From the NCBI GenBank assembly GCA_903920975.1, contig CAIXNZ010000023.1, positions 1-52,105 on the forward strand: DNA of 52,105 nucleotides, given 5' to 3'. Made by a program: the position numbers and the translations under genes. The DNA comes from Candidatus Falkowbacteria bacterium (lineage in GTDB: Bacteria > Patescibacteriota > Patescibacteriia > CAIXNZ01). A model generated the notes under the pieces. It saw nothing but the letters and a program-made list of their open reading frames with translations, did no database searches and was not told the origin of the DNA. Positions within the stretch are counted from its first letter, which is position 1, and each line of letters starts with the position of its first letter. This document shows, piece by piece, positions 10,585 through 52,015 of this stretch.

Positions 10585-10598
10585 ATAACAATAAATCT

Positions 10599-18265: not shown

Positions 18266-18266
18266 A

Positions 18267-32881: not shown

Positions 32882-33103
32882 ATGACTGAAGTAAAACGCA
32901 GAAAAAGCGAGACTTTTGAGAGCTTACTGAGGCGCTTTAACAAGAGGATCATCCAAAGCGGTAAAATCCTCCAGGCCAAGAAAATCAGGTTTTTGGAAAA
33001 ACAGCCGAATAAAAATTTAAGTAAAAAGTTAGCTTTACGCCGCAAGCAGATTCGGGAACAAAAGGAGTACTTAAAGAAAATCGGCAAGTTAATAGAAGAA
33101 TAA
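32882..33103 (+). CDS. rpsU: 30S ribosomal protein S21
   Basis: 73-aa basic ORF with S21-like ...ESLLRRFNKR....G...........EK.S..R... Confidence 0.88.
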   Translation: MTEVKRRKSETFESLLRRFNKRIIQSGKILQAKKIRFLEKQPNKNLSKKLALRRKQIREQKEYLKKIGKLIEE

Positions 33104-33136: not shown

Positions 33137-33577
33137 ATGCCAATTTTAGGGAAAATTGACTCTGATTTTAAGCAAGCTTTAAAAGAAAGAAAGCCAGACG
33201 CAGTCTCAACTTTGCGTTTGCTTTTGGCTGCTTTAAAAAATGAAAGAATAAAGAAAATGGCTGATCTGACCGATGAAGATGCGATCAAAATAATTAAAAG
33301 CGAGATAAAAAAAAGAAAAGAATCAATTGTGGAATATGAGAAAGGCCAGCGCGCTGATCTGGCTGATAAAGAAAGGCAGGAACTGGAAATTTTAAATCCC
33401 TATTTACCGGCGCAAATGGACGAAGGCCAAATCAAGTCAGCGATTGAGAAAATCTTGGCTGCCATGCCAGACAAAGAAAACGAAGGCAAGGTTATGGGCG
33501 CAGTCATGTCAGAGTTAAAAGGTCAAGCCGACGGCGCTCAGGTCCGCCAGATAGTCTCGGAACTCCTTAAAAAATAA
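33137..33577 (+). CDS. GatB/YqeY domain protein
   Basis: 146 aa with ...D.K.ALKE....V..LRLL.AA.KN... and the typical rpsU-yqeY pairing. Confidence 0.85.
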   Translation: MPILGKIDSDFKQALKERKPDAVSTLRLLLAALKNERIKKMADLTDEDAIKIIKSEIKKRKESIVEYEKGQRADLADKERQELEILNPYLPAQMDEGQIKSAIEKILAAMPDKENEGKVMGAVMSELKGQADGAQVRQIVSELLKK

Positions 33578-33595: not shown

Positions 33596-35500
33596 ATGCT
33601 AGAAAAATTTTTCTCGGCAAAAGTCAATTGCCAGGGACAAAAAAATAAATCAAAAAAGAGAACTGCCAAGCTGTTAGTAGTCATTGTGCTTTTGGCAGTT
33701 TTTTTATTAATACCTCAAGTTAAGGCGGCGACTTTAGATGTGGGCTTGTCATATGCTGCGCAAACCGGTTTGAATACTCAAGATATAAGAATAACAATTG
33801 CTACTATTATCAGGGTATTTTTGGGGTTTTTGGGTGTTACGGCCATAGTTATTATTATTTATGGCGGCTATACCTGGATGACTGCCGCTGGCAATCCTGA
33901 AAAAATTGAGCGAGCCAAAAAAATTCTAATTAATGCCGCTATCGGTCTGCTCATAATTTTATTAGCATTTGCCATAACCCAATTTATTCTGGGACAGCTT
34001 CTAAACGCTTTATACGGCGGTGGCGGACCTGGTACTCCTGGCTGGGGTGATGGTGGTGGTGCTTTGGGTAATGGCATTATTGAAAGTCATTATCCGCCGC
34101 GCAATGCCACTGGCATTCCCAGAAACACAAGTATCGTAGTTACCTTTAAAGAGCCGATGGATGTAGCTTCCATAGTCAATGATAATGGCACTCCAAATAA
34201 TTTGACTGATGACTTCATTCAAACAAATACAACCGATAACACTTATAACGTGCAGATATATCCGACCCCCAAAACCAATGAAACTAAAAATCCAGTACCT
34301 GCCAATAAAGTGAGGGTCTATTATACCACTGACTTAAGAACTTTTGTCTTTAAGCCAGTTGATTTATTGGGTAATCCCGATACCAATACAAGTTATACGG
34401 TTAATTTAAGTACTAATATTGCCAAGTTTGATGGCAAACCCGCCTTTGGCAATTATGGCCCCTACTATTGGAAGTTTGAAGTTTCCACTATTGTTGATTT
34501 AACGCCGCCCAAGGTAGTTTCGGTTATACCCTTTAAGGATCAGACCTATCCCAGAAATATTATTATTCAAATTAATTTTAATGAGGCAATTAACCCCCTG
34601 ACTCTCAGAGGTTTGGTTGAAATTCAGGGCGGTGGAACGCTTGGGCAGCTTAAAATAGATGCGGATGGAAAAATTATTACCTTCAACTATATAAACGTGA
34701 AAACCAATGATGTTCCTGAAAAATTTGTAGCTGGTGAATTTTTATACAGCAACATGTATCAGACAGTAGAATTTGTGACCAATGATCTATGCGGAAAAAA
34801 TTCCTGCGGTGGTAATGTTTACTGCTTGCCTGCTAATAAAACAATAACTGTTTTGGCTAAGGCGGCGGAATTAGTTGATACTGGCAAACCAACTGCCAAA
34901 TTTCCATTTACCGGCATAGTTGATATGGCTGATAATTCTTTGGATGGCGATAAAAGCGGGACAGCAGAAGGTCCCCCAAGTGATAATTATGTGTGGAATT
35001 TTTCTACCAACGATAAAATCGATATTATTCCGCCTAAAATTGATTTAAAAACGCCTGAGCAAGGAGCCGAAGCCAGCCCGGCAGATAGTTTTGAAATTAC
35101 TTTTGACAAATTAATGATGTCCAGCACCCTAAAAGGTGGTAGTAATTACGGCGATGGCTTGGAATATATTACTCTGGATCAGAGTAAGGCATTAGAAATA
35201 GATAAAAACATTTCCGGCTGGGGTTATTGGATAACCAACCAAAATTTACCCCAAGAAATTCCCACCAAGACCAAGGCAATTATTAATCATGCGATTTTAG
35301 GAGATTATTTACCTTATGCCATAAAAGTAAATTCCGGAGTTAAAGATATTTATCAAAATTGTTATCAGCCATGCGCTGGTCCGAGTTGTGACAGGGTTGA
35401 TACATCTACTCCAGGAGTATATGAAGCAGGCGCTTGGGTGCCAAATACTAATTGTTTCCCGTCTTGTGATTTAGATCCAACTTCTACTTGTGGACAATAA
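33596..35500 (+). CDS. surface protein: signal peptide + VirB2/TrbC-like pilin module + Gly/Pro linker + three Ig-like (Big_5/SbsA-type) domains
   Basis: 634 aa. Signal peptide ends ...PQVKA|A. The pilin-like module is encoded at 33728-34015, followed by a GGGGPGTPGWGDGGG linker. Three repeats of the P(P)K/R-(V/I)....P.......(I/F).(I/V).F...(M/I) pattern. Confidence 0.85.
   Translation: MLEKFFSAKVNCQGQKNKSKKRTAKLLVVIVLLAVFLLIPQVKAATLDVGLSYAAQTGLNTQDIRITIATIIRVFLGFLGVTAIVIIIYGGYTWMTAAGNPEKIERAKKILINAAIGLLIILLAFAITQFILGQLLNALYGGGGPGTPGWGDGGGALGNGIIESHYPPRNATGIPRNTSIVVTFKEPMDVASIVNDNGTPNNLTDDFIQTNTTDNTYNVQIYPTPKTNETKNPVPANKVRVYYTTDLRTFVFKPVDLLGNPDTNTSYTVNLSTNIAKFDGKPAFGNYGPYYWKFEVSTIVDLTPPKVVSVIPFKDQTYPRNIIIQINFNEAINPLTLRGLVEIQGGGTLGQLKIDADGKIITFNYINVKTNDVPEKFVAGEFLYSNMYQTVEFVTNDLCGKNSCGGNVYCLPANKTITVLAKAAELVDTGKPTAKFPFTGIVDMADNSLDGDKSGTAEGPPSDNYVWNFSTNDKIDIIPPKIDLKTPEQGAEASPADSFEITFDKLMMSSTLKGGSNYGDGLEYITLDQSKALEIDKNISGWGYWITNQNLPQEIPTKTKAIINHAILGDYLPYAIKVNSGVKDIYQNCYQPCAGPSCDRVDTSTPGVYEAGAWVPNTNCFPSCDLDPTSTCGQ
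33728..34015 (+). other. pilin-like two-TM module, copy 1
   Basis: TLDVGLSYAA...DIRITIATIIRVFLGFLGVTAIVIIIYGGYTWMTAAGNPEKIERAKKILINAAIGLLIILLAFAITQFIL. 61 of 91 positions are identical to copy 2 by hand alignment. Confidence 0.7.
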
Positions 35501-38500
35501 TGATTTTTTTATGCTAAAAAATTGGCAAAAAATCTTGATAATTACACCAATAATTATATTGGCCGTGTTTTTGTTTGCCAGCCAAATTAATGCCCAGACT
35601 TTAGACGTAGGTATTAATTATGCGGCTGGCGCTGGCTTGCCGACAACGGATATTCGCGTGACCATTGCCAATATTATCAGAGTAATGCTGGGACTTTTGG
35701 GCGTGGTAGCTGTTGGCTTGATAATTTATGGTGGGGTTATTTTTATGACTGCGCAGGGCATGCCGGAAAAAATTGATAAGGCTAAAAAGATTTTAATAGG
35801 CGCCACGATTGGCCTGGTCATTGTCTTATCTGCTTTTGCCATTGCCAGTTTTATACTCAATCAAATTTTGCAACAAGGTGGTCCGGGGCCGGGTCCAACC
35901 TGTAACAATAATGGTACTTGTGAGGCCGGCGAAACCCATGCATCATGTCCAAATGATTGCCCAGAAATACCAACTTGTACTGGCCCCTCTTGTTATACTC
36001 CGCCTCCCGGACTTTGTGACGATCCAAATCCGTCTGATGGATTACCCTGGCTGTGTCTTGATCCAAATCAAAGCATCAGGGGGCAGGCCATTACGGTTTA
36101 CGCGGGTAAGATAGACACCGCAACAACGGGAAAAATTTATTTTCAGGCTAAGGAAGGAAATCCTGATACTAATGCTAAATACGAAGTTGAGATATTAAAA
36201 TGCAAAGATACTGATCCTGCCTGGTTTGTGCGCAGAGACAGTGTTTTAAGTAAAGCCGTTATTAAGGTGCCAGAAAGTTTAATTTTAACCGATAATAAGT
36301 ATAAATTGGTCGTTGAAAATGCTGCAGACGAAAATGGTAATATTACCTCAACTGCTAATAAGAGCTGGGGTGGTTTTGGTGGGTCAGGAAAAGATATTTT
36401 TACATTAACCAGTGAAACATCATCAACTGACCCGATATTGATTTGTCTTTTAAAGGATAGTCCAACTGATGGTGAAGAAATATACAGAGCAAAAACAGGC
36501 GATACTAGGTATTTATTGGGTAACAGATTCCCGGCTAATACAACTGACAATAGTGTTACCTATGATAATGTAAATTCTGAACTTAAAGGCGCTAGTGAAC
36601 CAAGACCGGGTATAATTGCTTTGGAAAATTTGGTGCCGCAAGCGCTTTCCGGCTATATCCAGCTGACAACAAGCGGCAAAAAAAGCAATCGACTTTATAA
36701 CACAATTTATTGCGATACTAATAATGAATGCGTGAGCGGCTGTTGCGCAGCTAATACTTGTAAGACTGCTAGGTATTGTGCCAGTGGTGAGGGGGAAGGC
36801 TGTAAAACTACTTGTGCTGATAGTGGCTGTCAGCCAGACCTTTATTGTGACAATACATGTAAATGCAGATCGATAGGCGAAGATGCATCTTGCAGTAGTT
36901 CAACGACAAGTTGTGTTCCTAAAGTTGATTTTTGCGGACAGGATCTTTATTGTTCAACATCAAGAGAATGCAAATGCCAATATAATCCAATAATAACCAA
37001 GATTGATCCCTCAGATGGGGCAGTGGGCAATTATGTAACTGTGATTGGACAGGGTTTTGGTAATGTAAAGGGAACGGGAGAAATATATTTTTCGCATCTG
37101 ACTGGCACTACCAAAGATTTTATAGCAGCCAAAGTTCCAGCTGGTTGCGGTGCTGATAATACCTGGACTGATAAATGGGCAATTGTTGAAATACCAGAAG
37201 GAGCCATAACTGGTCCGGTTAAAATAATAAATTCTGATAATAAAGAATATATTTACGCAACAGGTTTTTCGGTTAATGATACGGTCAGACCAGCACTCTG
37301 TAATGTAACTACAGCTGCTGATTGTGCAACAGAGCCTCCAACTGATGACCTTAATAAATACCGCAAAGGAGAATTTAGTACGCCTGTCTTATTGTGCGGA
37401 AAAAATTTCGGGGCAACGAAAACCACTGTATCCAAGGCCGTAATCGGCGGCACTGATTTTGGCGGAACCGCCTGGTTGTGGGCAGACGCTTTAATCTCCA
37501 ACTTAACAATTCCCAATCTGCAGCCAGCCACTTTGCCGGTTCAGGTGAAAGTCGGACAAGTAAATAGCAATCCTTATAATTTTATTGTATTATCAACTGC
37601 CAAAGCCCCAAAAATAGACAATCTTGATCCTAATTTTGGACCTACCGGCCAATACATAACAATTATGGGCAGTAATTTTGGCACCACAAATGGTACGGTA
37701 AAATTTTATAAAGATACAACAGGCGCTTGGATAACGGCTGATACTAATTTTGGGCAAAAATGTACAACTTTTGGTTACTGGCACGATAGTTACATCGTAG
37801 TTAAAGTGCCTGGCGGACTAGATATCGGCGCTGAAAAAAGTAAAATACAGGTCACAACCAGCAAGGGGGCAAGCAGTAATTCAGTAAATTTCAGCCCTTG
37901 CAATGCCAATACTACAACCTGTGCATTAAAGCCGGGTATTTGCGCTATTGCGCCGAGCCAAGCGCCAACAGGTTATAATCCTATAAATATTTATGGTGAA
38001 AATTTTGGCGATTTTGGAGTTAATAGCCAAATAAATTTTTCTGATAAAAAAAGAGTGACTGAACCCGGTGATTTAACCACTTATTGGGCAAAGACTCAGG
38101 TCAGCGGGATTACCGTGCCAAATGGCGCGATTACTGGTCCGGTCCAATTAACTGATGTCAATGGAATCGTTAGTAATCGTTATCCATTTGAAGTAACTGA
38201 TTGCCGCAATGAACTAAAAACTTATTGTTCGAAGTTTGATACTGATAATCCGAAAAAGACATTCATTTGTTGTCAAAAGGATGGTATATGTAAAACAGAG
38301 GCCGAATGCAAAGGGCCTACCGCAGCTCAATGTTCATATAATTACAGTTTCATGACCGGAAAATATTTTGGCCCGCCACGCGTTGTCGAGAGAATTTTAT
38401 GCGATACAAACACGCAAAGTCCGTCACCCTGGAGAGAATCAAAAAATAATTGTATTAATGCGGGCATCACCGTGGCCTTTAATCAAGAAATGGATTTGAG

Positions 38501-41500
38501 CGCTCTTTTAGATGGCGGTTTGATGATTGAAGATTGCACAAATGATAATTTTGATTTTGATAGAAATATTTGCGCAAGTAAGACAATAAGCGGTGATTTA
38601 CAGTTAAGCGGTGATTTGGAAACAGAGCTAGATAAAATTAATAAATTTTCTTTTTTTCCTGCAGAGAATTTCGTGCCCCAGCATTGGTATAGAGTAACGT
38701 TGGTTGCCAATTATGTAAAATCTAAGGATGGTGTACCTTTGGACGGCAATAATGACGGAGATGCCGGTGGAAATTACAGCTGGAATTTTAAAATAAAAGA
38801 TAGTACGGAGGAATGCAAACCAGAAAATATCGTGGTTAATCCCCAGGAAGTTACTCTGGAAAAGATTGATCAGACCAAAAATTATTACGCTTTTGCCCAG
38901 ACACAAATTTGCAATGTCTTAAACGGCAATCTTTATGATTGGTGGTGGTATAAAATGTATGATGGCGAGCGAGAAATTGATAAGTGCGCGACAGGCGACC
39001 TTTGCATTGCCACAATTTCCAGAAATGATATTATGCCGCCTCCCAATGGCAATAAGCTGAATGACCCGAATCAAATAGCGACGGCGAAAAAGCAGGGCCG
39101 CACCTTTGTTGGCGCTGAATTGCCAGCCTTTGATGTACGTGATCAAGATAACCTGCTGAACATTGATTTAAAGATTCCGGAAATAACTTCTATCTGGCCT
39201 GATAACGGCGATGTTAGGCCCGAAGTGGTCACTAGTGTAGCGATTCACGGTAAAAATTTTGGTAAGGTGCAAGGCACCAGTAAGGTATTTTTTGAAGACT
39301 CAGCTAAAAATAGAATAGAAGCTGAATTTGCAGATTGCGTTAATCCTTGGTCTGATACTGATATTATGGTTAAGGTACCGATTAATGTGGTAACCGGTAG
39401 CTATTTAGTGGTGCAAACTTATTATGGCGAGGGTAAAAGCACTGACACTTTTCAATTAAGCCAAAATATCTATCCCTTTTTATGCGCCCTGCAGCCAAAT
39501 TACGGCAAGGAAAACGCCAGTGTCAATGTCTCTGGCTGGAATTTTGGCGATTCCAATAAAACCATTTTTGGGGGCAAGGAATTTAATATCGGCAGCAATT
39601 TGTTTTTTGATAATACAGTTTTTGAAAATAATAAATTAAAAACTTGGACAAATAATCTTTTAACTTTTAATAATCCCATTAATGTATCGCCCAATCCCCA
39701 AATTCCAGTTCGAGTTAGTATTGATCCGCTTTCAGAGCCGTATGTTGATTTGCCGAAGCTTGGCATTTTTACATCAGGCGATGAATATGCAGATTTAAAC
39801 ACCAATAGCCAATATGATAAAGCGATTTATCCCGTAAAAGATAAGGTGGGAACTACGCGAAACGAACAATTATTATATAGCAATGAATTGACTTTTACAC
39901 TGGCGCCAGTGATTACTGCTTTATCGCCTAATAATGGTCCGATAAATCAATGGGTCACTATTTACGGATATAATTTTGGCAATAATGAGGGCGAAGTTTA
40001 TTTTGCTGATAAAAAAGCTACCTTAGCGCCTTGCCAGACAAAAACCTGGACTAATAATTTTATCATTGCCATTGTGCCGGCAGGCGCTAAAACAGGCGAT
40101 GTTTATATAAAAACGGAAATAGGCATTGAAAGTAATCGCCAACGTTTTACTGTAAATACTAAGCCATTGGGCGCGGGTTTATGTTCAATCACTCCGGCCC
40201 AGGGCAGTATTGGCGAAGTTGTTTATGCATTTGGTGATCGTTTTGAAGAACCGCCCAGCGGTGAAATACAACCGGCTGATAGCGATCTAATTTTTACTTC
40301 TAATATCAATGCGCCAATTAGCCTCTGGTCTAATCAGAACATAGTGGCTAAAATTCCTACCGGCTCAACCAGTGGCGATGTAATTGTTAATAAAAAAGTG
40401 ATTGTCGGCCAAGCCTGTGTTGGCTTTCATATTGCCGGTTTTTGTCCCAGCAATACTTATGAAAATGCTTACGAAATGGCGCCGAGCAATGCCGTGCCAT
40501 TCACTGTCTTGAAAGATATTTGTACCAGCGGCTATATAGCGCGCGTTGATAAGGGTTTGGCGCCTGGACGGCCCAATTGGAATGCCCGCGATAATGGTTT
40601 CCCAGTAGAAGTGACTGATAAAAACGGCCAAAGTTTGTCTGATCCCAATATTTATTTAAATATTGTGACCATAGATTCAGCATCTGCTGGCGCCTATTTG
40701 TTTACTGCGCCTCATTATTATATTTATTATTATGGTTCTTCCTGGGGAGCCTCTGTGCCTGATAGAAAAAATACAATTTATAAAATCGGCACTGGCTATA
40801 AGGACACGGAGTTGGGCAGATTGTATAAAAAATATGTTTATGATCAAAGTTTAAATACACCGACAACTAGTCCGATGGGGGTCAATTTTGCTACCCATTC
40901 TTGGTATGCTGAGTCTTCTTATTATATGTCACCTTTTACCTCTCTTATTTCAATTGCCGGAAATTTATACGCCACTTCGCCAACTAGATGGGTTACTGAT
41001 GATAATTGGTATATTCCAAAAATTGTTTTTCATGATGAAATAAGCAAGGGCGAGGATACTTATGCTTATGGCTTTGAATTTGTTAAAGTGCCCCAGCCCT
41101 TAATAATATCTAATAATGCTGATTTGGGTGGCGTCGGATATCTTATCAATTCGCCAAACTTTTTAATCACCTCCAACGGTAAAAATATTTTTGTGATAAG
41201 CTATGATCTGCCGGGCAGTCCAATTTCGGATTTAAAGGGTTATACGATTCAGGTCCTGGATGAAAATTGGAAAGAAGTGGAAAAATTTGAAGTTCCCAAT
41301 TTACCGCAAACCAGTTATGATTACATAAATTTTTCAAATATATATTATGCCACAGGTATTATACTTGGCGGAGCTATTGCTGATGAACAAAATATTTATT
41401 TAAGGAATCAGTCATGGAATTATCGTTTGTTACAGGTTATAAATTGGCAGCAGAAAAAATGGCTAACCACTTATTTAGATGACGCATATTTTGGCGGTAT

Positions 41501-44500: not shown

Positions 44501-45353
44501 TGCGGTCAAAGAATCAATTGCTAAATTATCTGTTCAGGCTCAGGCCGAGGGTACGGTCAGCAGCCCGGCCCAAGCCCCTTTTACTGTCTATACATTGTTG
44601 TGTGAAAATCCCTGGCCGTCATTCAATGAAAAATTTCCGGTTTCTTCAATTATCAATGCTTATAATTATCAGACCTATTATTGCCGTGACGCCGGACCGC
44701 CCGGACCTGACGGTGATTTGCCGGCAGCCAAATACTTAAGCCCACAGGGCCAGAATATTTTAGCTAATACTGATTTTGAGAACGGCAATCTGGGCAGTTG
44801 GCTAGCCTTAGACGGGCTGACAACATTTGATTTACAACCTGTTTATGGAGATATAACTAATATCAGAGATGGTGCGCCCAGTAATTTGCAGGGCAGTTGG
44901 TGGTTAAATACCCAAGAAAATTTTCATAATTATCCCTGGCAGAATGTTAAGGATCCGGGACAAGGCTTATCATCATTAGGTGTTTTATCTTCCCAGGCCT
45001 TTATAATAGAGGGCGATCAAATTAAATTTAGAATCGGTGGTAGTAATAATGCCTGGGATCCTCTTGGCGGAGAATCCGGGGGATTAGCGTCAGCACCTAG
45101 CGGTGTTACTGCCGTGACTCTAGAAATAAAAGATCCTAAAGACCCAGATATTAATAAGCAGGATAAATTTTACGTTAAATATCAAGCAACTGGCGCTAAC
45201 AGCCCGACAATGACAGAGAAGACCTTTGATGTTAGCGGCGATGTTGGTAAAATTGGTATTATAAGAATTTATGACAATAATGCTGGCGGTTATATTGCCT
45301 TTGATGATTTAAAACAGTGGAAAGCCGGTAAAAGAATAGATATCAAATATTAA
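35490..45353 (+). CDS. giant surface protein (3287 aa): pilin-like module + Cys-rich region + at least 9 IPT/TIG-like domains + Ig-like domains + LamG + C-terminal CBM-like domain
   Basis: Uninterrupted 9.86-kb ORF that overlaps the upstream stop by 11 nt (alternative ATG at 35511). Recurrent (I/L).(I/L).P..G..G..(V/I)(T/Y)I.G.NFG motifs at about 36980, 37600, 37940, 39175, 39480, 39900, 40180, 41755 and 42840. LamG-like ...LTMSAWI...VAVS...FYINGV...G.(V/I)DEVR(V/I)YN at about 41900-42540. N.DFENGNL.GW at about 44760. Confidence 0.9.
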   Translation: MDNNDFFMLKNWQKILIITPIIILAVFLFASQINAQTLDVGINYAAGAGLPTTDIRVTIANIIRVMLGLLGVVAVGLIIYGGVIFMTAQGMPEKIDKAKKILIGATIGLVIVLSAFAIASFILNQILQQGGPGPGPTCNNNGTCEAGETHASCPNDCPEIPTCTGPSCYTPPPGLCDDPNPSDGLPWLCLDPNQSIRGQAITVYAGKIDTATTGKIYFQAKEGNPDTNAKYEVEILKCKDTDPAWFVRRDSVLSKAVIKVPESLILTDNKYKLVVENAADENGNITSTANKSWGGFGGSGKDIFTLTSETSSTDPILICLLKDSPTDGEEIYRAKTGDTRYLLGNRFPANTTDNSVTYDNVNSELKGASEPRPGIIALENLVPQALSGYIQLTTSGKKSNRLYNTIYCDTNNECVSGCCAANTCKTARYCASGEGEGCKTTCADSGCQPDLYCDNTCKCRSIGEDASCSSSTTSCVPKVDFCGQDLYCSTSRECKCQYNPIITKIDPSDGAVGNYVTVIGQGFGNVKGTGEIYFSHLTGTTKDFIAAKVPAGCGADNTWTDKWAIVEIPEGAITGPVKIINSDNKEYIYATGFSVNDTVRPALCNVTTAADCATEPPTDDLNKYRKGEFSTPVLLCGKNFGATKTTVSKAVIGGTDFGGTAWLWADALISNLTIPNLQPATLPVQVKVGQVNSNPYNFIVLSTAKAPKIDNLDPNFGPTGQYITIMGSNFGTTNGTVKFYKDTTGAWITADTNFGQKCTTFGYWHDSYIVVKVPGGLDIGAEKSKIQVTTSKGASSNSVNFSPCNANTTTCALKPGICAIAPSQAPTGYNPINIYGENFGDFGVNSQINFSDKKRVTEPGDLTTYWAKTQVSGITVPNGAITGPVQLTDVNGIVSNRYPFEVTDCRNELKTYCSKFDTDNPKKTFICCQKDGICKTEAECKGPTAAQCSYNYSFMTGKYFGPPRVVERILCDTNTQSPSPWRESKNNCINAGITVAFNQEMDLSALLDGGLMIEDCTNDNFDFDRNICASKTISGDLQLSGDLETELDKINKFSFFPAENFVPQHWYRVTLVANYVKSKDGVPLDGNNDGDAGGNYSWNFKIKDSTEECKPENIVVNPQEVTLEKIDQTKNYYAFAQTQICNVLNGNLYDWWWYKMYDGEREIDKCATGDLCIATISRNDIMPPPNGNKLNDPNQIATAKKQGRTFVGAELPAFDVRDQDNLLNIDLKIPEITSIWPDNGDVRPEVVTSVAIHGKNFGKVQGTSKVFFEDSAKNRIEAEFADCVNPWSDTDIMVKVPINVVTGSYLVVQTYYGEGKSTDTFQLSQNIYPFLCALQPNYGKENASVNVSGWNFGDSNKTIFGGKEFNIGSNLFFDNTVFENNKLKTWTNNLLTFNNPINVSPNPQIPVRVSIDPLSEPYVDLPKLGIFTSGDEYADLNTNSQYDKAIYPVKDKVGTTRNEQLLYSNELTFTLAPVITALSPNNGPINQWVTIYGYNFGNNEGEVYFADKKATLAPCQTKTWTNNFIIAIVPAGAKTGDVYIKTEIGIESNRQRFTVNTKPLGAGLCSITPAQGSIGEVVYAFGDRFEEPPSGEIQPADSDLIFTSNINAPISLWSNQNIVAKIPTGSTSGDVIVNKKVIVGQACVGFHIAGFCPSNTYENAYEMAPSNAVPFTVLKDICTSGYIARVDKGLAPGRPNWNARDNGFPVEVTDKNGQSLSDPNIYLNIVTIDSASAGAYLFTAPHYYIYYYGSSWGASVPDRKNTIYKIGTGYKDTELGRLYKKYVYDQSLNTPTTSPMGVNFATHSWYAESSYYMSPFTSLISIAGNLYATSPTRWVTDDNWYIPKIVFHDEISKGEDTYAYGFEFVKVPQPLIISNNADLGGVGYLINSPNFLITSNGKNIFVISYDLPGSPISDLKGYTIQVLDENWKEVEKFEVPNLPQTSYDYINFSNIYYATGIILGGAIADEQNIYLRNQSWNYRLLQVINWQQKKWLTTYLDDAYFGGISGTTLFYPGQYDWFNNKYWFGPYGKPDTTLFKDPTIPNKKYNLLYSFSACAIGAGESKDPRTCITDADCIACGTGLSRCVKGLCTPVINNFTPPQGAIGTYTTITGCYFGCREGEVWFTGKKNSSDVYANNESTFYQFNNTNDSSSNKYDLVLKETAVVEGGVLKLDGNSYAMTTRNVDLNARGDEMDSGLTMSAWINIPVGTPSGTYEIVTQGGGNWNPYNYWGVYVNGSWGLTFYSSLGNQPFNNKLIELGQWTHVAVSAWYSKKDDTTYFKFYINGVEKWSSAKPGNLIPTTRNNIPLMIGAIQWSAPSLTYKPEHRFSGEVDEVRVYNSALVFDEIKRIYDFGYENDNIRNTEGYNKKGIKISKPECKDLWKCSGSYDGTTFDQVTIELPARATTSSADDAITGPIEIVSAEKLMDNTEHLPLGTPPQDKNFIVNDILPPGLACLLPDNGEKLTKVRAVGDYFGDTAGTNDFINFKQDDKAEGLKISSFITSAERSDCPASGWSMGSICFAVPNEIEDIKDNWVSVIKNAVFGNELSWTYNMGLCGNGVINKPSENCDGVVPPPIITDDERIDICKKLFSTDYPLEQIISCTVQCAACDLKFCVGNDCRSTKELCGNQTIEFYKDIHEEDCDGTNLNNKSCEKLGYGPGDLACYAPAATNQCKFDYSDCKYGAPKVQSTVPANGGPFCRNGIIDIYFDSQIDLTTITKSNFVIGTCTPTLSGLAYKSEEKGIFAYLKNIAKKLLGFSTPASAEEVNVGGSTCDMFASTDYFLRTTNLYGRTQVSIISKGTKKLLDPATVYTVGIISGANGVKNLNGVPLDISNSPIANIGEAYAFEFKTMGTSADSQSGICSVKSIKFNVYRQSFNINDTTCSADGSCGVDPCLDGTCSSRIAEVRNNDLFICAGKDDCELDIDFDQDNQTGGNQHIYQAIAQYLGGMTLKATYTWSKTDKLDPKKVLSLYNNQTYDNGETDGNTIEPPDPYKVRNSNGIVYVTAAAVKESIAKLSVQAQAEGTVSSPAQAPFTVYTLLCENPWPSFNEKFPVSSIINAYNYQTYYCRDAGPPGPDGDLPAAKYLSPQGQNILANTDFENGNLGSWLALDGLTTFDLQPVYGDITNIRDGAPSNLQGSWWLNTQENFHNYPWQNVKDPGQGLSSLGVLSSQAFIIEGDQIKFRIGGSNNAWDPLGGESGGLASAPSGVTAVTLEIKDPKDPDINKQDKFYVKYQATGANSPTMTEKTFDVSGDVGKIGIIRIYDNNAGGYIAFDDLKQWKAGKRIDIKY
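35595..35876 (+). other. pilin-like two-TM module, copy 2
   Basis: TLDVGINYAA...DIRVTIANIIRVMLGLLGVVAVGLIIYGGVIFMTAQGMPEKIDKAKKILIGATIGLVIVLSAFAIASFIL, followed by a GGPGPGP linker. Confidence 0.7.
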
Positions 45354-45364
45354 AATAGAAATTT

Positions 45365-48300
45365 ATGAATCATACGGAAAAGAAAAATAAATACTTGCTA
45401 CTAATTTTTGCTTTATTTTTATTATTGCCAGCCAGTGCTTTGTGCCAAACCAATACCAATCAAGCACCGTCAGTGGGAACAGTTGAAAATCTTTCCACCT
45501 TAAAGCAGTACTGGTTTCCGATTGCTTCATATGAAGAAGTCGGCACACCCATTAGCCGCCCAGGCGCTGAATGCGAAAGTGTTGTTACTTTTGCAACTGA
45601 CGATACTCCGCTTAGTTGTGCTGCTCTGCCTTCTACCAATGCCCCAATTGTCAAACTTTCCAATGGGGGAGCTTTAACATCTGGTACAGCAAAATTGAGC
45701 TATGCATTCACAGTCCCCGCCGCAGGCAGTTATGACTTTAAAATAAAAGTCTCCAATGATGCGGATAATTTTTCCAAATTAAGCCGTGAACAAATAGATT
45801 ACATTCTGGCCAATGACGCCAATCACGATAATGTTTCTTATCAAATTGATTCTGCCAATGGTAATCTGACTGTTATGGAATATAGCGATTATGCCGGCAG
45901 TCTGGCCAGCAACGCCAAATATAATACTTTTCGCAGTATGATATTTAGTGTTTATATTGATGGCGAAGATGTTCAGCACAGAAAGGGCTTTATTGTGGTT
46001 AAAAATACTGACCCCAGCCAGCTTCAGGAAAGCTCAGTGGCCTTAGGTTCTTTAGAGACGGGTCAGCACACTGTTTATTTGCATTTTTTAAGTGATTATT
46101 ATTTTGAATATCAAAGTGGCGCTCTGCCTAGCGGCTTTAAAAATTTTGCCACTACTGATTTAAATAAGGGAAGATGTTTGGGGGGCGCTAAGGCCGGAGC
46201 AGAATGCTCTATTGATAATGATTGTCCTGAAAGTGCTTGTCAAAAAAGCTTGGACACCAATCCGGTAATTTATTCAGTGGCGATTAATACTGTTCAGCCC
46301 TCCCTAGACGTAATCGGCATATTAGTATTTCCTAATCCCAAATCATTGGATCCTTTGACCTGGTACAATGAAAATACCATAACTCCTTCAGCAGATGTTG
46401 AGCAAATTACAGTTGATGGCTATCGCGCTGTCAGGGATGATCACACTGTTTATGTTGATGCCGCCAATATTGATGCCAATGACTCTTTTTATACCAATAT
46501 TTATGTTATTGCTTACAATCTGGGGGCGCCGGCGCCAACCGTGGCTATTTTTAATCAAATGCTTGATAATTGGGTTTTTAACACAAATGTAATTGCTCTG
46601 GATCCATTAGTCGGAGAAACAGCCAAAGACAAATTGCGCCGTGATACCATTAGAAAATCAGATTTATATAATATTCAGCAATTATTAGAAAAATATAAGG
46701 CGGCAAATTCGGGTAAATATCCGGCTTTTGAAGCCGGCACTTATATCAAAGACCATACTATTTCTACTTGGCCTTCCTGGCAGGCAACGCTGGGCAATAA
46801 ATTGGGTTCTGGTTTGCCTGTTGACCCGTTAAACATAATGACAATAGATAATCGCGAACCTTATGATTGTAATAATCCAGTGGAAAAAGCCAACTGCCAG
46901 AGCATTTGTTCCAGAGATGAGGGAGGCAACCCACTAACCGGCTGTCCGAGCAATCAGCAATGCGTTGGCAATCAATATTGCAGTATGTGCGAGCCGGGCT
47001 ATGATGCTCAGACTTGCTGGGATAAAGTCGCGACCAAATTTGCCTTCCCTGATATTTTTTCCGGTTGTGATTTGCCGCGGACAAATATTTATAATGGAGC
47101 ACTCAAGCTCGGCGCCTCAACCTGCACATTAGGTAAGACAGATACTGTTCCGTCCAAGCCATACTCTTTTGACGGAGCATATGTTTATCAATATACGGCC
47201 AAGGATAATGGCACAACCTACCTATTGAATTATCGACTGGAATACAAGGCCCCTGTTTGTTCGGCTGACCAGTGCTCTTTTGAGGGCACTTGTTATCAGG
47301 CAGGCAGTTGTTTGTATAATCCGCTAAACGAAGTTACGCCCATATATCCTAATTACAAAAATACCCAGTGCTTTTTAGGTCGCTGGGATAATTCCTGCAA
47401 TAACGGCATTGTCCAGACAGAATGCGGCGAAGAGTGCGATCCTGGAGCGCCAACTGATACGCTTAGTTCGTATTGCGATGTGAAATTTGGTTCTCATGAC
47501 TGGTACAATGAGGCAAATATTAATGCTTCTTGTACTGATCAATGCGTTTATACGGCGCCAAGTGGTACGGTTGAAGCCTATACCAAAGATCCCACATTAT
47601 TAAATTGCGGCGGTTTTTGCGGTGATAAAATTTTACAGTCGGAATACAAAGAAAGTTGCGACCAGGGTCCCGGCGGCATTGTTCCTACGCCAGATCAGAT
47701 AGTCGGACGCATTAATGGCGTGGAAGTGAGGGGTGCGGGCGGCACCAGTCAAAGTCTGCAATATCGATGTTCAGCAACTTGCCAGCCAGATGGCGGGTTT
47801 TGCGGTGACGGCCTGTTGCAGTCTGAATTTGAACAATGCGATAAAGCCAATTATATTACGCCAACGCCACAAGAAACAACAGAAGCAGTTGAGGGTGCTA
47901 AGCCCCAGTATGCCTGCGGCAAAATAAGCTCGGGCAAGGATTGTCAATTTAGCGGCGGTTTTTGCGGCGACGGCACTGTTCAAGATAAATATGGCGAGGT
48001 CTGTGATGATAAAGTAGGCATAGCCTGTAGTATTGACTCGGACTGTCCTGCTAAAACCTGTTCCAATACTTGTGCCGGAGGGGATAATGCCGACAAACCC
48101 TGTGCTGGCAGTTCAGATTGTCCAAAAGGAAGCTGTACTCCTGCTAAGCGCGTTTGCACCAGCAAGAACTGTAATCAATATTGCAAAGGCACTTATTGCG
48201 GCAATGGTGTGGTTGAGAGCCCTAATTCCAAAGGCGTAAATGAGGTTTGTGATTGGGCATCTGATCCGCTTTGTTCGCAGGATTGCCAGCATATAAAGAT

Positions 48301-51300
48301 GGGCGGGACTTGCACTGATTCAGTCTACAATCACAATTGCATCGGGGGAGCTAATAACGGCAAGGGATGCAGTACTAATGCAGATTGCCCCGGCGGAACT
48401 TGTTCCACGCCTTGTAACCCGCAAACAAATCCTGACACCTGCAAACTTTGCGATAAAAATTTGTCTTGTTCGGTCAGGAATTTTGGCGACCTTGATTTAA
48501 AATGCCTGGGTACGCGTGGCAGCTTTGGTTGTACCAGAAATGATGATTGTATCTCGGGTTATTATTGCGACAGCCAAACCACTAAATGTGAAATGGAAGC
48601 TTCAACTTATTTAACGTACCGTGCGCAGGATATTTTGCGATTATATTTCCCAGGTGTTCCCAGAATTTATATTGATACAAATCCTTCCATCTGTCCTAAA
48701 CTGGAGATTGTGGCCTTGAGCCAGGATAAATCAGCGGTCTTTGATTTATGCTCCGGCCTGTCCTGGGATTCTGCCGATAAGATTTCTAAAGACCAGTGGA
48801 AATACACAGACGCCCAAAACGCCTGCACAGGTATATTCAAATTGCCGACGATTGCCGAGCTTTATAGTTTAGTCAGTCAGACGAATTTGGGCACTGGCAT
48901 TGATTTCAAGGAACAAGCCAATGCCTTGAAATTATGCGGCCTAAGATGCGGCTATAATCCCAAAGATCCGGCCACGCTTTGCATTAATTGCGGCGATGAT
49001 AACTATATTTATTGGTCCAGCACTTGCAGCCAAAAAACAGGGACGACCTGCAATAAAGCGCTGGCCGTGAATTTCAAATATGGCAGCGTTGAAGAATATG
49101 ATGTTAGTGAAGGCTTGAAAGTTCATTGTAAGAGAGAGGCACAATGCGGCAATGGCACGATTGAAGAAGGCGAAAATTGCGAATTTTATGTTGATGCTAA
49201 CGGCAAATTGCTTGAGCAAAACATTGCCACCAAATGCACTGATCAGGGCTATGATGGCGGTTTTGTGCATTGTGACCCCATTAGTTGTATCCGCAGATAT
49301 GATAATTGTTATTTAAATTCTGTGCTTGGCCAAAACTGCGGAACCATTTGCCAGAATAAAAAGAAGCTGGCCTGTAAATCAATCGGGCTTAATAATGATA
49401 AGGATAGATTTGAAATTACTGAAACCGGTTCAGTCATAGCGCAAACAGCCGATAATCAATTATTATATACAAAAGATGTAAATAATTGCGTCACTAATTA
49501 TACAGAGGCAGGACAAGGCGGTTGTGACAGAGTTTTTAATCAGATTGGCGATGGCAAGTGTAATATCAGCGGTAGTCTGGCGCCATTTTTGGCCGAATAT
49601 TCATATTGTAATTGTGATGAAATTTTCAGCGCAGAATCTTGCGTACCAAATACTTGCGATGAGCTTGAAGTGGGGTGCGGCGCGACTCCTAATGGCTGCG
49701 GCGGCACAATTGCCAATTGTGGCAATTGTCCAGGTGGCAACTGCGAAGCAGGCAAATGTATAGCCTGCACGCCAAGTTGCAGTTCGGGCGCGAGGTGTAC
49801 TGGCAACAATCTTGAAGAATGTATAACTGAAGCGCAAAATTCCTGTTTGCATTGGGTTCAAACAAAGACCTGCGCTGCTGATAGAGATTGCAGCGCAACT
49901 CTAAAAACTTGTGTCAAAAAGTGTCCTGATAGCTGCACGGTTGGAGTGTCACAATGCGATGGCACCAATGCTTACAAAACCTGTGTAGCGCCGTTGGACC
50001 CCATAAATAATTGTCCCGACTGGTCAGTTTCGTCTACTTGCCCAACCGGCCAAACCTGTCAGGATGGAGCATGCAAATGTCCAACGGCAATTTGTACCAA
50101 GGATGCGACAAGATGTTCTGGCAATGATCTTGAAAAATGTATAGAGGATGCGGCAAATGGTATTTGCGCCCATTGGATTACCGAACCGGCCTGCAGCGGC
50201 GGTCAGACCTGTCAAAGCGGAGCGTGCGCTTGTGCTACTGGGTATAAAGATTGCAGTGGCACGTGCATACTTGACGCAAACTGTTGTAATGCCGATGACT
50301 GTTCAGCTATTTCGGGTCAGATTTGCAAACTGGATGGCAGTTGCGACTGCTCCGCAGGATATAAAGTCTGCGGTACTTCCTGCATTCCAACAGCAAATTG
50401 TTGTACCAGCGCTGAATGCACGGCGATTTCTGGTCAGACCTGTCAAAGCGGAGTTTGTGCCTGTTCCTTAGGAAATAAAGTCTGCGGTACTTCCTGCATT
50501 CCAACAGCAAACTGCTGCACTAATGCTGACTGCGCTGTTGACCAGACCTGCAATACTACGACCAAACAATGCGTGAGCTCTGCCAAAGCAATCACTGCTT
50601 TCACTATTCCTTCCCAAGTCGGCACAACAACAATCAATGAGAGTGCTAAAACAATCGCAGTGACCATGCCTCCTGGCACTAATGTGACTTTATTAACTCC
50701 AACCATTACTATTTCTGCAGGAGCATCAGTTAATCCAGCTTCTGGCACAGCCCAAAATTTCACCAGTCCAAAATCATATATTGTTACCGCGGCAGATGGT
50801 TCAACCCAGGCATATACGGTAACGGTTACAGTCATGGTTGGAACAGCCATAACGATTACTAATACCACTACTGAAGCACTAACAGATTATCAGGTAAAAT
50901 TTACTTTAGCATATACTAGCTCCATTCCCACTCAATTAAATATTACTAACCAAAGCGGAACAAAAATACCATATTATATTGATACTACAGTTACCACTAA
51001 TCCAAGACCAGTATATGTAAAGGTCCCATCAATACCGGCAAAAGTAGCTGGTACAAATGGTACTGCCACAATATATGTGGCCAAACCAATAACAGGCTCT
51101 TCTTTAGCCTCTGATGGCCCAGGAACTTTTGATCTGTTTCAGGATTTCTCGACTGGTGGTATTGGCAATCTTACATTACTTGGAGGTCAAGATAATTGCC
51201 CCCCCGGTGGCTCATATAGTTGCTGGGGAATGTATACGCTTCCTAGCGGCGCCCAAGGTTATCCCTGTAATGCCGATGTAAATGGAGCATCTTATTATGA

Positions 51301-51841
51301 AAAAATAGCCGGAAGAACTCAAGGCACAATATTTCCAAATGCAAATTATGATTGTTCTCTTCGCCAAAGCGTGGCGCTTGGGCTTCATTCTGAACAGACT
51401 TTTAGTGATAATTTCAGAGTAACATCTAAATTATTAGTTCCTGGGGGAAATAGTTATACAGGCTGGTTTGCAGTTGCTGGCTTGGGTAAAACATATTTAG
51501 CATTGTATAATGGCGGATCAAGATTTGGATTTTTGGATAGTGGAAGTTGGTCAAATATTTCGGGTACTGGAGGAAAAACATATACAGATTATATGACAAA
51601 TTATGTAAAGATTGACGAGACTTTTGATAATGGACTTATTAAATTTTATATTAATGATTCATATGTATACCAGAAAAATTGGGGCACTGGTACTTATCCT
51701 AACCAACTGCATTTTGGTTTTTCTCCTAGCGCAACCGTAGCTGGCTTTGAAGCTCGTTTTGACGATATTAGGGTTTCTAAATTTGTTACATCAGAACCAA
51801 CTGCAAACCCCGCATCAGTAACTTATTCAACCTTACCTTAG
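45365..51841 (+). CDS. giant secreted Cys-rich protein (2158 aa): Sec signal, CBM-like N-domain, type IV pilin head-like motif, CxxGxxxxxExCD repeats, DUF1566-like domain, tandem Cys-knot-like modules, Ig-like module, DUF2341/LamG-like C-terminus
   Basis: Uninterrupted 6.48-kb ORF starting 11 nt after the previous stop. Signal peptide MNHTEKKNKYLLLIFALFLLLPASALC. Motifs are listed in the findings. Confidence 0.9.
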   Translation: MNHTEKKNKYLLLIFALFLLLPASALCQTNTNQAPSVGTVENLSTLKQYWFPIASYEEVGTPISRPGAECESVVTFATDDTPLSCAALPSTNAPIVKLSNGGALTSGTAKLSYAFTVPAAGSYDFKIKVSNDADNFSKLSREQIDYILANDANHDNVSYQIDSANGNLTVMEYSDYAGSLASNAKYNTFRSMIFSVYIDGEDVQHRKGFIVVKNTDPSQLQESSVALGSLETGQHTVYLHFLSDYYFEYQSGALPSGFKNFATTDLNKGRCLGGAKAGAECSIDNDCPESACQKSLDTNPVIYSVAINTVQPSLDVIGILVFPNPKSLDPLTWYNENTITPSADVEQITVDGYRAVRDDHTVYVDAANIDANDSFYTNIYVIAYNLGAPAPTVAIFNQMLDNWVFNTNVIALDPLVGETAKDKLRRDTIRKSDLYNIQQLLEKYKAANSGKYPAFEAGTYIKDHTISTWPSWQATLGNKLGSGLPVDPLNIMTIDNREPYDCNNPVEKANCQSICSRDEGGNPLTGCPSNQQCVGNQYCSMCEPGYDAQTCWDKVATKFAFPDIFSGCDLPRTNIYNGALKLGASTCTLGKTDTVPSKPYSFDGAYVYQYTAKDNGTTYLLNYRLEYKAPVCSADQCSFEGTCYQAGSCLYNPLNEVTPIYPNYKNTQCFLGRWDNSCNNGIVQTECGEECDPGAPTDTLSSYCDVKFGSHDWYNEANINASCTDQCVYTAPSGTVEAYTKDPTLLNCGGFCGDKILQSEYKESCDQGPGGIVPTPDQIVGRINGVEVRGAGGTSQSLQYRCSATCQPDGGFCGDGLLQSEFEQCDKANYITPTPQETTEAVEGAKPQYACGKISSGKDCQFSGGFCGDGTVQDKYGEVCDDKVGIACSIDSDCPAKTCSNTCAGGDNADKPCAGSSDCPKGSCTPAKRVCTSKNCNQYCKGTYCGNGVVESPNSKGVNEVCDWASDPLCSQDCQHIKMGGTCTDSVYNHNCIGGANNGKGCSTNADCPGGTCSTPCNPQTNPDTCKLCDKNLSCSVRNFGDLDLKCLGTRGSFGCTRNDDCISGYYCDSQTTKCEMEASTYLTYRAQDILRLYFPGVPRIYIDTNPSICPKLEIVALSQDKSAVFDLCSGLSWDSADKISKDQWKYTDAQNACTGIFKLPTIAELYSLVSQTNLGTGIDFKEQANALKLCGLRCGYNPKDPATLCINCGDDNYIYWSSTCSQKTGTTCNKALAVNFKYGSVEEYDVSEGLKVHCKREAQCGNGTIEEGENCEFYVDANGKLLEQNIATKCTDQGYDGGFVHCDPISCIRRYDNCYLNSVLGQNCGTICQNKKKLACKSIGLNNDKDRFEITETGSVIAQTADNQLLYTKDVNNCVTNYTEAGQGGCDRVFNQIGDGKCNISGSLAPFLAEYSYCNCDEIFSAESCVPNTCDELEVGCGATPNGCGGTIANCGNCPGGNCEAGKCIACTPSCSSGARCTGNNLEECITEAQNSCLHWVQTKTCAADRDCSATLKTCVKKCPDSCTVGVSQCDGTNAYKTCVAPLDPINNCPDWSVSSTCPTGQTCQDGACKCPTAICTKDATRCSGNDLEKCIEDAANGICAHWITEPACSGGQTCQSGACACATGYKDCSGTCILDANCCNADDCSAISGQICKLDGSCDCSAGYKVCGTSCIPTANCCTSAECTAISGQTCQSGVCACSLGNKVCGTSCIPTANCCTNADCAVDQTCNTTTKQCVSSAKAITAFTIPSQVGTTTINESAKTIAVTMPPGTNVTLLTPTITISAGASVNPASGTAQNFTSPKSYIVTAADGSTQAYTVTVTVMVGTAITITNTTTEALTDYQVKFTLAYTSSIPTQLNITNQSGTKIPYYIDTTVTTNPRPVYVKVPSIPAKVAGTNGTATIYVAKPITGSSLASDGPGTFDLFQDFSTGGIGNLTLLGGQDNCPPGGSYSCWGMYTLPSGAQGYPCNADVNGASYYEKIAGRTQGTIFPNANYDCSLRQSVALGLHSEQTFSDNFRVTSKLLVPGGNSYTGWFAVAGLGKTYLALYNGGSRFGFLDSGSWSNISGTGGKTYTDYMTNYVKIDETFDNGLIKFYINDSYVYQKNWGTGTYPNQLHFGFSPSATVAGFEARFDDIRVSKFVTSEPTANPASVTYSTLP
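50201..50511 (+). repeat. perfect intragenic DNA repeats (36 nt x2, 22 nt x2) marking a recently duplicated 38-codon Cys-rich module
   Basis: taaagtctgcggtacttcctgcattccaacagcaaa at 50362-50397 and 50476-50511. ggtcagacctgtcaaagcggag at 50201-50222 and 50432-50453. Confidence 0.85.
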
Positions 51842-52015
51842 GTTCAGTATTATAAATCAACAATTTTATATTTGAACAAACATGAGCAAGGCCAGTCCGC
51901 GACCGGAGTTCAGACTTTTCCGCCTTTGGCGGAATCCGCCACAGGCGTGATAGTCTTTTATCTTGACCATAGCACTTGAAAAATATCTCAAATTTAACAT
52001 ATCAACCATATCAAA

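Follow-up and report, generated by a model that had tools for sequence, protein, structure and literature searches.

A type IV secretion pilin-like hairpin heads giant, predicted surface proteins encoded in a conserved operon of Patescibacteria

A 52,105-nt stretch of DNA from a Candidatus Falkowbacteria bacterium (contig CAIXNZ010000023.1 of assembly GCA_903920975.1, hereafter the window) carries three consecutive genes directly behind rpsU and yqeY that encode proteins of 634, 3280 and 2158 amino acids (proteins 1, 2 and 3). In proteins 1 and 2, a predicted signal peptide is followed by a two-helix hairpin of the type IV secretion system (T4SS) pilin-like family PF18895, a Gly/Pro linker and a large ectodomain. 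On balance, we regard it as probable that the three products form a hairpin-anchored, glycan-binding, multi-protein surface complex of a Patescibacteria lineage. Proteins 1 and 2 would leave the cytoplasm through Sec and lose their signal peptides to signal peptidase I, after which the hairpin would hold both proteins in the cytoplasmic membrane and the Gly/Pro-rich linker would join it to the ectodomain. Protein 1 would then present about four immunoglobulin-like (Ig-like) domains, and protein 2 an array of some 3100 residues with TIG/Ig-like, LamG/lectin-like and Cys-rich modules. Protein 3, secreted by its own signal peptide, would dock on protein 2 and add lineage-variable lectin-type modules (Lcl_C, CBM_4_9, C-type lectin or LamG). 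The most likely role of such a complex would be binding to glycans or surfaces of other cells, i.e., attachment.

Much of the bacterial diversity that has yet to be cultured belongs to the Patescibacteria, whose cultivated members are, to our knowledge, all found attached to other cells. Small VirB2-like pilins and arrays of pilin genes have been described in this group (PMC12102498), and a T4SS with its pilin array was essential in one species tested, Southlakia (PMC10633639, PMC12102498, PMC11665869). What appears to be new here is the reuse of the T4SS pilin-like module as N-terminal carrier of giant surface proteins encoded in a conserved operon. The preliminary description of this DNA knew of no system in which a VirB2-like module carries giant C-terminal cargo, and we likewise met no mention of pilin-fused giant surface proteins in the literature searched; since many subscription papers fell outside its scope, the term undescribed is provisional. 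Fusion of the module to very large surface proteins rich in lectin-type domains is routine, and at least several hundred species carry the operon. Should the module serve only as an anchor, it represents a major, so far undescribed way for single-membrane bacteria to mount surface proteins; if it is handled by a T4SS, there would be a direct tie between that machine and cell-cell contact. Either way, the operon provides concrete candidate attachment proteins for a large group of uncultured, probably cell-attached bacteria.

The hairpin module: family and topology

Both hairpins exceed the cut-off of PF18895 (T4SS_pilin; 26.6 bits). Residues 68-131 of protein 1 score 35.6 bits in the whole protein and 39.0 bits in the isolated module, and the values for residues 55-122 of protein 2 are 35.0 and 40.2 bits, respectively. 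With NF045849 ('Mbov_0395 family pilin-like conjugal transfer protein', cut-off 40 bits), protein 1 scores above the threshold (42.2 bits) and protein 2 below it (29.4 bits). The two modules are 59% identical to one another. No further hairpin modules were found elsewhere in the window.

Searches of plasmids with the module by tblastn gave marginal matches (E 0.07-0.2) that were used as leads, and significance was taken from profile alignments with hhalign. The best supported relative is a 151-aa protein of a Pontibacillus megaplasmid (probability 97.6%, E 2.9e-12, 67 columns), annotated as Mbov_0395-family pilin-like and encoded 4 kb upstream of a VirB4-like ATPase; it has the loop motif Y-x-G...T-S-x-G-D/N-P-x-K...A-K in common with the module. 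A probability of 84% was obtained with an 84-aa open reading frame (ORF) adjoining a VirD4-like gene on Paraclostridium sordellii pCS1-5. Judged by these two alignments, relatives of the module occur within T4SS gene clusters of single-membrane bacteria.

The classical conjugative pilins are a different matter. The module resembles VirB2, TrbC and TraA in its long signal peptide, short exposed N-terminus, two hydrophobic helices and short basic loop, but the TrbC profile PF04956 gave no match to it even at E up to 10, and hhalign of the module profile against five annotated plasmid VirB2/TrbC proteins reached a probability of 24.6% (E 8e-4) with a co-linear alignment. VirB2 and TrbC are also joined head to tail into rings, an arrangement that a C-terminal fusion would not allow. 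When the hairpin model was compared with the PDB by Foldseek, the best E was 0.48 and the top 50 contained no pilin, a helical hairpin being too simple for such a comparison, and a profile search of the module against PDB sequences returned nothing. Homology to classical VirB2/TrbC is thus not demonstrated by these comparisons, and 'pilin' in the names of PF18895 and NF045849 is best read as a name given by similarity. The preliminary description had called the module both T4SS pilin and TrbC/VirB2-like, and had reckoned with a generic signal-anchor if pilin-family matches failed to appear. The first label holds for both proteins through PF18895, with NF045849 adding to it for protein 1; the second, in so far as it implied kinship with the classical pilins, is not demonstrated.

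Hydropathy analysis revealed exactly three hydrophobic segments in proteins 1 and 2, corresponding to the signal peptide and two transmembrane segments, and the signal peptide as sole hydrophobic segment in protein 3. In the AlphaFold2 model of the protein 1 module, based on 36 homologous modules, a signal-peptide helix (residues 21-44) precedes the two hairpin helices delimited in Table 1, and the predicted local distance difference test score (pLDDT) exceeds 90 over residues 80-130. The GGGAL motif of the linker behind the hairpin is conserved among homologues. Taken together with the PF18895 matches, the architecture proposed earlier for both proteins, from signal peptide through two-transmembrane module and linker to a very large ectodomain, was recovered.

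The mean net charge over homologues is +4.6 in the n-region of the signal peptide, -0.8 in the mature N-terminus, +1.1 in the loop and -0.2 behind the second transmembrane segment. Because of the positive-inside rule, this distribution places the short basic loop in the cytoplasm, with the N-terminus out and the large C-terminal part outside. By these simple rules, hydropathy and charge agree with the outside location of the C-terminal part that had been suggested before, and the deduced placement is the same with or without signal-peptide cleavage. Signal peptidase I sites of the AxA type can be inferred in all three proteins, after V-K-A44 in protein 1 (where cleavage is probable by the AxA rule), I-N-A28 in protein 2 and A-S-A25 in protein 3.

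In relatives with a single copy, the module is located at the N-terminus, as it is here. The small stand-alone size of about 80-150 aa is not found in the window: the module is fused to ~490 aa in protein 1 and ~3150 aa in protein 2. The loop motif Y-G-G-x3-M-T-A/S-x-G-N-P-E-K-I-x2-A-K-K is kept all the way from the Firmicutes T4SS-cluster proteins to these giants. Outside the window, there are also proteins with 6-17 tandem hairpins, e.g., P0128 (820 aa, 8 copies), P0131, P0133 and P0220 (1775 aa, 17 copies), in which each copy carries the loop motif. Such tandem poly-hairpin proteins must be polytopic membrane proteins, and their duplicated hairpins are reminiscent of ATPase rotor subunits.

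Ectodomains and the proposed link between proteins 2 and 3

Beyond the linker, protein 1 continues with about four Ig-like domains of the Big_5 type and ends in a part that contains Cys. Its 641 homologue matches are essentially all of the same kind, combining PF18895 with Big_5 (PF13205) in 550-930 aa, and invariant motifs occur along the whole ectodomain. In an AlphaFold2 model of protein 1 (mean pLDDT 84, predicted template-modelling score 0.74), the hairpin and a disordered Gly-rich linker are followed by about four beta-sandwich domains. Foldseek matched this model with the S-layer protein SbsC (E 3.6e-9), the Sap S-layer protein, cadherins, titin and the adhesin FdeC. The TM-scores for SbsC and Sap are low (0.11-0.15), with cadherins and titin scoring similarly, and matches of this kind to the model appear typical of Ig-like domain strings. 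Automatic JGI names on homologues (EmrE-like, YwzB, PspC, YcdF) were discarded as spurious.

The ectodomain of protein 2 contains Cys-rich segments, TIG repeats, Big_5, Laminin_G_3 and a conserved C-terminal region. Its orthologues (2500-4050 aa) align end to end, and among 12 of them that were scanned against Pfam, T4SS_pilin and TIG were present in all, Laminin_G_3 and Big_5 in 10 each and a Sialidase N-terminal lectin-like domain in seven. Protein 3 has a conserved core and a lineage-specific C-terminal part of 740 aa, consisting of Cys-rich repeats, DUF5018, DUF2341 and a ConA-like end. In 20 scanned orthologues of protein 3 (1600-2300 aa), Lcl_C was found 15 times and CBM_4_9 10 times, with C-type lectin, Sushi and LamG domains scattered among them. 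The adhesin building blocks recognised in the preliminary description recur in these proteins or their orthologues (Big_5, TIG, Laminin_G_3 and CBM), alongside lectin-type modules and the Ig-like domains in the model of protein 1. Of the Pfam families it had anticipated, PF18895, Big_5, TIG, Laminin_G_3 and DUF2341 score above their own cut-offs, as does DUF5018, which it had not listed; the Lcl_C/DUF1566 domain of protein 3 stays below threshold in the window's own protein (24.5 bits against a cut-off of 34.9) and is recognised in orthologues only, in the proportion given above.

Cysteine makes up 1.6% of protein 1, 3.0% of protein 2 and 7.0% of protein 3, an increase that would be compatible with disulfide-bonded extracellular proteins. 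Genomes of the Candidate Phyla Radiation are enriched in MdbA-like oxidoreductase and VKOR (PMC6744442).

No other means of surface attachment was recognised in the three proteins. Reading of their C-termini revealed no LPXTG motif, hydropathy gave no C-terminal hydrophobic segment, and neither SLH nor another wall-binding family was among the Pfam matches. Protein 3 as a lipoprotein was considered and, by inspection of the sequence, rejected: S-A-L before Cys27 is not a lipobox, and A-S-A followed by L would fit signal peptidase I. Its description as a protein with a signal peptide and no anchor agrees with hydropathy.

How, then, might protein 3 stay with the cell? Orthologues of proteins 1 and 3 occur together on at least 15 contigs, and the protein-3 orthologue lies directly behind the giant gene where this was checked. 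In 13 of 79 orthologous loci, a single ORF unites the hairpin, protein-2-like segments and the N-terminal region of protein 3, and a 6028-aa protein (P0166) has the same co-linear order of hairpin, protein-2-like and protein-3-like parts. Fusions of this kind are a classic indication of physical cooperation between proteins that are otherwise separate. Because of these natural fusions, protein 3 can be proposed to work physically with protein 2, and the idea that it is a partner of the anchored proteins, raised earlier from its lack of an anchor, gains support.

Two segments of protein 3 deserve separate mention. The domain at residues 60-316 (window 45540-46310) is present once here and twice in most orthologues, where a second copy with ~30% identity is inserted after residue 805. 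Residues 425-500 approximately (46640-46870) contain the conserved pattern RRDTIRKSDL...LLEKYK..NSGKYP...WPSWQ. In three of six orthologous segments, the window's own not being one of them, this region gave sub-threshold matches to T2SSG (PF08334, GspG/type IV pilin-like head; E 0.005-0.2, 12-17 bits against a cut-off of 21), which hints at a pseudopilin-like domain that lacks the N-terminal helix.

Anchor, pilus subunit or envelope scaffold

In a scan of one genome per species, a relative of protein 1 was encoded in 408 species genomes; the named carriers include Uhrbacteria, Buchananbacteria, Falkowbacteria, Komeilibacteria, Magasanikbacteria and 'Parcubacteria'. Synteny was counted over the 79 inspected loci. 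Upstream of the operon, rpsU was present in 66 and yqeY in 58 of them, most of the other loci being assumed to be cut by contig ends, and the series signal peptidase-HisRS-S21-YqeY precedes the operon in most. A second hairpin-bearing protein is encoded directly downstream in 70 of the 79 loci and has at least 1500 aa in 56 of these 70. With protein 3 behind the giant gene wherever checked, the three-gene order seen in the window recurs across genomes. Longer contigs display LytR and Der on the opposite strand, then signal peptidase I-HisRS-S21-YqeY, the operon, an Lcl_C protein and YbeY-DgkA-FtsA-FtsZ. The operon is a chromosomal, vertically inherited and conserved core-genome block of a Patescibacteria lineage.

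The fusion itself is widespread in metagenomes. A profile search of 1.84 billion representatives detected the module in 42,005 proteins at E<=1e-3 and in 10,908 at E<=1e-10. Lengths were tallied for 143 of the best 150 representative matches, seven being left out because they were already in the set of protein-1 homologues. The median is 907 aa and the maximum 6028 aa; thresholds of 500, 1000 and 2000 aa are reached or exceeded by 104, 66 and 35 of the 143, respectively. Homologues are named 'hypothetical protein' or 'Ig-like domain-containing protein' in their sources, with no other names. The fused architecture, for which the preliminary description had left room to be a common and already characterised family, is therefore common, and no paper that characterises it was found in the literature searched.

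Some loci depart from the usual arrangement. Three close relatives carry an extra hairpin gene of 360-388 aa between the orthologues of proteins 1 and 2 (L002 11930-13012, L009 12001-13164, L011 11938-13029), which is absent from this window. In a Falkowbacteria metagenome-assembled genome with a 565-kb contig (L001/L010), the protein-1-like gene is duplicated (5774-8284 and 9210-11798), with one copy before and one after rpsU-yqeY; several flanking housekeeping genes there are split into short ORFs, probably by assembly or frameshift errors. Many operon-carrying records (L009, L011, L012, L033, L042 and many others) are titled 'uncultured Gammaproteobacteria bacterium', 'Candidatus Methylomirabilis sp.' or 'Chlamydiae bacterium', which are probably placeholder or wrong labels or reflect contaminated bins.

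Among the closest counterparts in the literature are the VirB2-like arrays of Patescibacteria T4SS, e.g., Southlakia epibionticum SEML1_0006-0019 (PMC12102498, PMC10633639), which have PF18895, the phylum and the design of signal peptide plus two-helix hairpin in common with proteins 1 and 2. These arrays consist of small pilin genes, 2-11 per array, and often adjoin virB4 (PMC12102498), whereas here the hairpin is the N-terminal 4-20% of proteins of 634 and 3280 aa, and the genes reside in a housekeeping block. The Mbov_0395 family of conjugative elements in Firmicutes and Mollicutes is similar in its profile, which protein 1 matches, and in its loop Y-x-G-x3-I/M-T-S-x-G-D/N-P-x-K, but its members have 80-150 aa, a putative function, and a location on mobile elements with VirB4, VirD4 and relaxase. 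There is no such context at the present locus: a conjugative or mobile element was ruled out by housekeeping neighbours, conserved synteny and the lack of relaxase, VirB4, VirD4 and integrase.

With respect to design, modular type IV pilins of monoderms offer a parallel. Streptococcus sanguinis PilB and PilC combine an N-terminal pilin module with a grafted C-terminal binding module of the vWA or lectin type. The logic of an N-terminal filament or membrane module with a C-terminal binding module is the same as in proteins 1 and 2, but those pilins are of an unrelated class (type IV, with a single N-terminal helix and processing by a prepilin peptidase), and the cargo is a single domain as compared to up to 3100 aa. 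Strings of Ig-like domains with lectin-type end modules are also known from SiiE, FdeC, Legionella Lcl, SbsC and Sap, and Ig-like/TIG stalks with binding modules from the LPXTG/sortase giant adhesins of monoderms. Anchoring and export differ in these systems: LPXTG with a hydrophobic tail, SLH, autotransporter and type I secretion signals were not recognised here, and the pilin-like hairpin would take their place.

The view that the hairpin serves as a static anchor is favoured by the very different cargoes that it carries in thousands of protein clusters, by the existence of tandem poly-hairpin proteins, and by the surroundings of the operon. Searches with phmmer for VirB4, VirD4 and VirB6-like genes were negative in the window and in 1.35 Mb of sequence within 10 kb of the 79 orthologous loci, with a sensitivity limited by the use of Firmicutes proteins as queries. 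The window also has no type IV pilus genes.

Several observations weigh against this preferred reading of an anchored, glycan-binding complex. Conservation of the cytoplasmic loop is unexpected for a passive anchor and hints at an interaction with conserved machinery, possibly a T4SS. The hairpins of proteins 1 and 2 are ~55% identical within a genome, as compared to 44-46% for orthologous hairpins between genomes (57 of the 79 loci), and in 24 of the 57 genomes no protein-2 hairpin matches better than the one encoded in the same genome. This likeness is compatible with co-evolution or co-assembly of the two hairpins, gene conversion being a neutral alternative, and together with the loop conservation it would fit hairpins that pack together or on a shared machine. 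The high conservation of the protein-1 ectodomain is unlike what would be expected of a typical host-specific adhesin. Adhesion and host contact are suggested by domain types only, and these are mostly generic families. Much of proteins 2 and 3 has no counterpart in Pfam or, by sequence, among solved structures: nine unassigned segments gave essentially nothing in Pfam at E up to 1, and when the full proteins were compared with the PDB by phmmer, matches were confined to the DUF5018-type Ig domain of protein 3. Finally, cleavage and topology are predictions from simple sequence rules.

The loop and the within-genome likeness of the hairpins are also what would be expected if the hairpins of proteins 1 and 2 were true pilin subunits, extracted by a T4SS into a VirB2-type filament. 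They might be minor or tip subunits alongside small stand-alone pilins, with the giant adhesin domains hanging outside the filament. We consider this possible but unlikely. It is attractive since PF18895 is the family by which VirB2-like pilins of Patescibacteria T4SS were identified (PMC12102498), since pilin arrays are essential in Southlakia (PMC10633639), and since no PrgB-type adhesins were found in the published survey of Patescibacteria T4SS (PMC12102498), which leaves the contact function unassigned. Moreover, the hairpin has a small homologue encoded within a T4SS gene cluster, and its outward-facing C-terminus would be compatible with display. F-pilin tolerates C-terminal epitope fusions. 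However, a helical pilin lattice could hardly accommodate a cargo of 50-340 kDa unless such subunits were few, and the existence of proteins with 8-17 tandem hairpins speaks for a module that is able to function within the membrane. The negative search for T4SS genes near the loci, within its limited sensitivity, and the undemonstrated relation to classical pilins also count against a filament. We also know of no pilus shown for any member of the PF18895/NF045849 family. A more far-reaching version, in which a chromosomal T4SS co-polymerises both hairpins with small pilins into a VirB2-type pilus of a single-membrane bacterium that bears covalently attached adhesins as long as 3000 residues, to which protein 3 is bound, and thus forms the missing host-contact device of the essential Patescibacteria T4SS, is slightly less likely again.

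The genomic setting invites another explanation, that the three proteins form an S-layer-like coat or a wall-spanning scaffold for cell integrity or division and do not bind other cells. The operon belongs to the core genome, between rpsU-yqeY and ybeY-dgkA-ftsA-ftsZ, and genes for LytR-CpsA-Psr and signal peptidase are in the same conserved block. The spread of protein 1 over 408 species genomes, the strong conservation of its ectodomain and its best structural matches, the S-layer proteins SbsC and Sap, would be in line with a scaffold. But the TM-scores of these matches (0.15 at best) and the similar scores of cadherins and titin indicate that they reflect generic Ig-like strings. SLH or other wall-binding domains are missing among the Pfam matches, and the lineage-variable lectin-type modules of proteins 2 and 3 would be expected for ligand binding and not for lattice formation. 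We regard a scaffold as improbable.

Least convincing, and in our estimation very improbable, is a hairpin that acts as transient export or targeting device, after which the ectodomains are cut in the Gly/Pro linker and become soluble or wall-bound: the conserved flexible linker directly behind the second transmembrane segment and the anchorless protein 3 as component of a complex would suit it, but neither a protease site nor a protease gene was identified, a simple signal peptide like that of protein 3 would suffice, and a 95-aa hairpin conserved in thousands of proteins argues for a lasting role.

Gene organisation and surroundings of the locus

The ORF coordinates (Table 1) confirm three co-directional genes behind rpsU-yqeY, which jointly occupy 18,246 nt or 35% of the window. 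Chance ORFs or pseudogenes were ruled out by intact full-length orthologues of all three proteins in many genomes. Of the spacing given in the preliminary description, the 18-nt gap between yqeY and gene 1 and the 11-nt gap between genes 2 and 3 stand. The 11-nt overlap between genes 1 and 2 depends on a GTG start at 35490 and is probably not correct; the ATG at 35511 (MLKNWQ...) is the start called in another assembly and is in register with the N-termini of orthologues, and its use gives a gap of 10 nt.

Table 1. Positions of genes, domains and signals at the operon (nt, coordinates of the window)
Feature	Position (nt)	Strand	Residues	Basis or remarks
Signal peptidase I (Peptidase_S26) gene	30692-31321	+		Synteny and Pfam annotation on orthologous contigs
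Promoter-like site, TTGACT, 17 nt, TG-TATGAT	32819-32847	+		5' of rpsU; consensus scan
rpsU (S21)	32882-33103	+		ORF; Pfam Ribosomal_S21 on orthologous genes
yqeY	33137-33577	+		ORF; Pfam YqeY on orthologous genes
Gene 1	33596-35500	+	634 aa	
Protein 1, predicted signal peptide	33596-33727	+	1-44	Lys/Arg-rich n-region, hydrophobic core
Protein 1, hairpin	33785-34015	+	64-140	Helix 64-95, loop TAAGNPEKIERAKK, helix 101-140
Protein 1, Gly/Pro-rich linker YGGGGPGTPGWGDGGGALG	34016-34075	+		Sequence; low pLDDT at residues 140-153
Gene 2, from GTG	35490-45353	+	3287 aa	
Gene 2, from ATG	35511-45353	+	3280 aa	
Protein 2, predicted signal peptide		+	1-28	
Protein 2, hairpin	35652-35873	+	48-121	Followed by GGPGPGP linker
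Protein 2, Big_5	38424-38789	+		Pfam
Protein 2, Laminin_G_3	42030-42521	+		Pfam
Gene 3	45365-51841	+	2158 aa	
Protein 3, predicted signal peptide		+	1-25	Predicted cleavage after A-S-A; no transmembrane anchor
Protein 3, conserved core	45365-49621	+	1-805 and 845-1419	
Protein 3, Lcl_C/DUF1566-like region	48737-49129	+		Below cut-off
Protein 3, DUF5018	50564-50833	+		Pfam
Protein 3, DUF2341	50936-51157	+		Pfam

Co-transcription of the three genes is plausible because terminator-like sites are not in excess and a promoter-like site precedes rpsU. The region contains 17 terminator-like sites as compared to 19.4 expected from shuffled sequences, in agreement with the earlier failure to identify an internal terminator. 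The promoter-like site agrees with the consensus in 10 of 12 positions and has an extended -10 TG; by this consensus match alone, it is a candidate start of a transcription unit rpsU-yqeY-gene 1-gene 2-gene 3. The signal peptidase I gene upstream encodes an enzyme of the class that would be expected to cut all three signal peptides. Just past the stop codon of gene 3, at 51890-51950, there is a short GC-rich inverted repeat, CCGCCTTTGGCGG, which is not followed by a T-run and was not called as a terminator by the scan.

The remainder of the window is ordinary chromosome, with genes for, among others, L15, SecY, Adk, MAP, RuvX, RecO, pyrimidine synthesis, AspRS, ScpA/B, a penicillin-binding protein, ParA/B, RelA/SpoT, TopA and DprA. 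A run of genes at 4555-10189 encodes PyrB, a PyrC-like amidohydrolase, PyrK, PyrD, PyrF and a PyrE-like phosphoribosyltransferase, in a lineage that is usually described as being without nucleotide synthesis. On the minus strand at 17819-18722, two adjacent ORFs of 148 and 151 aa gave weak partial matches to PF00882 (zinc-dependent phospholipase C; E 7e-4 and 4e-6).

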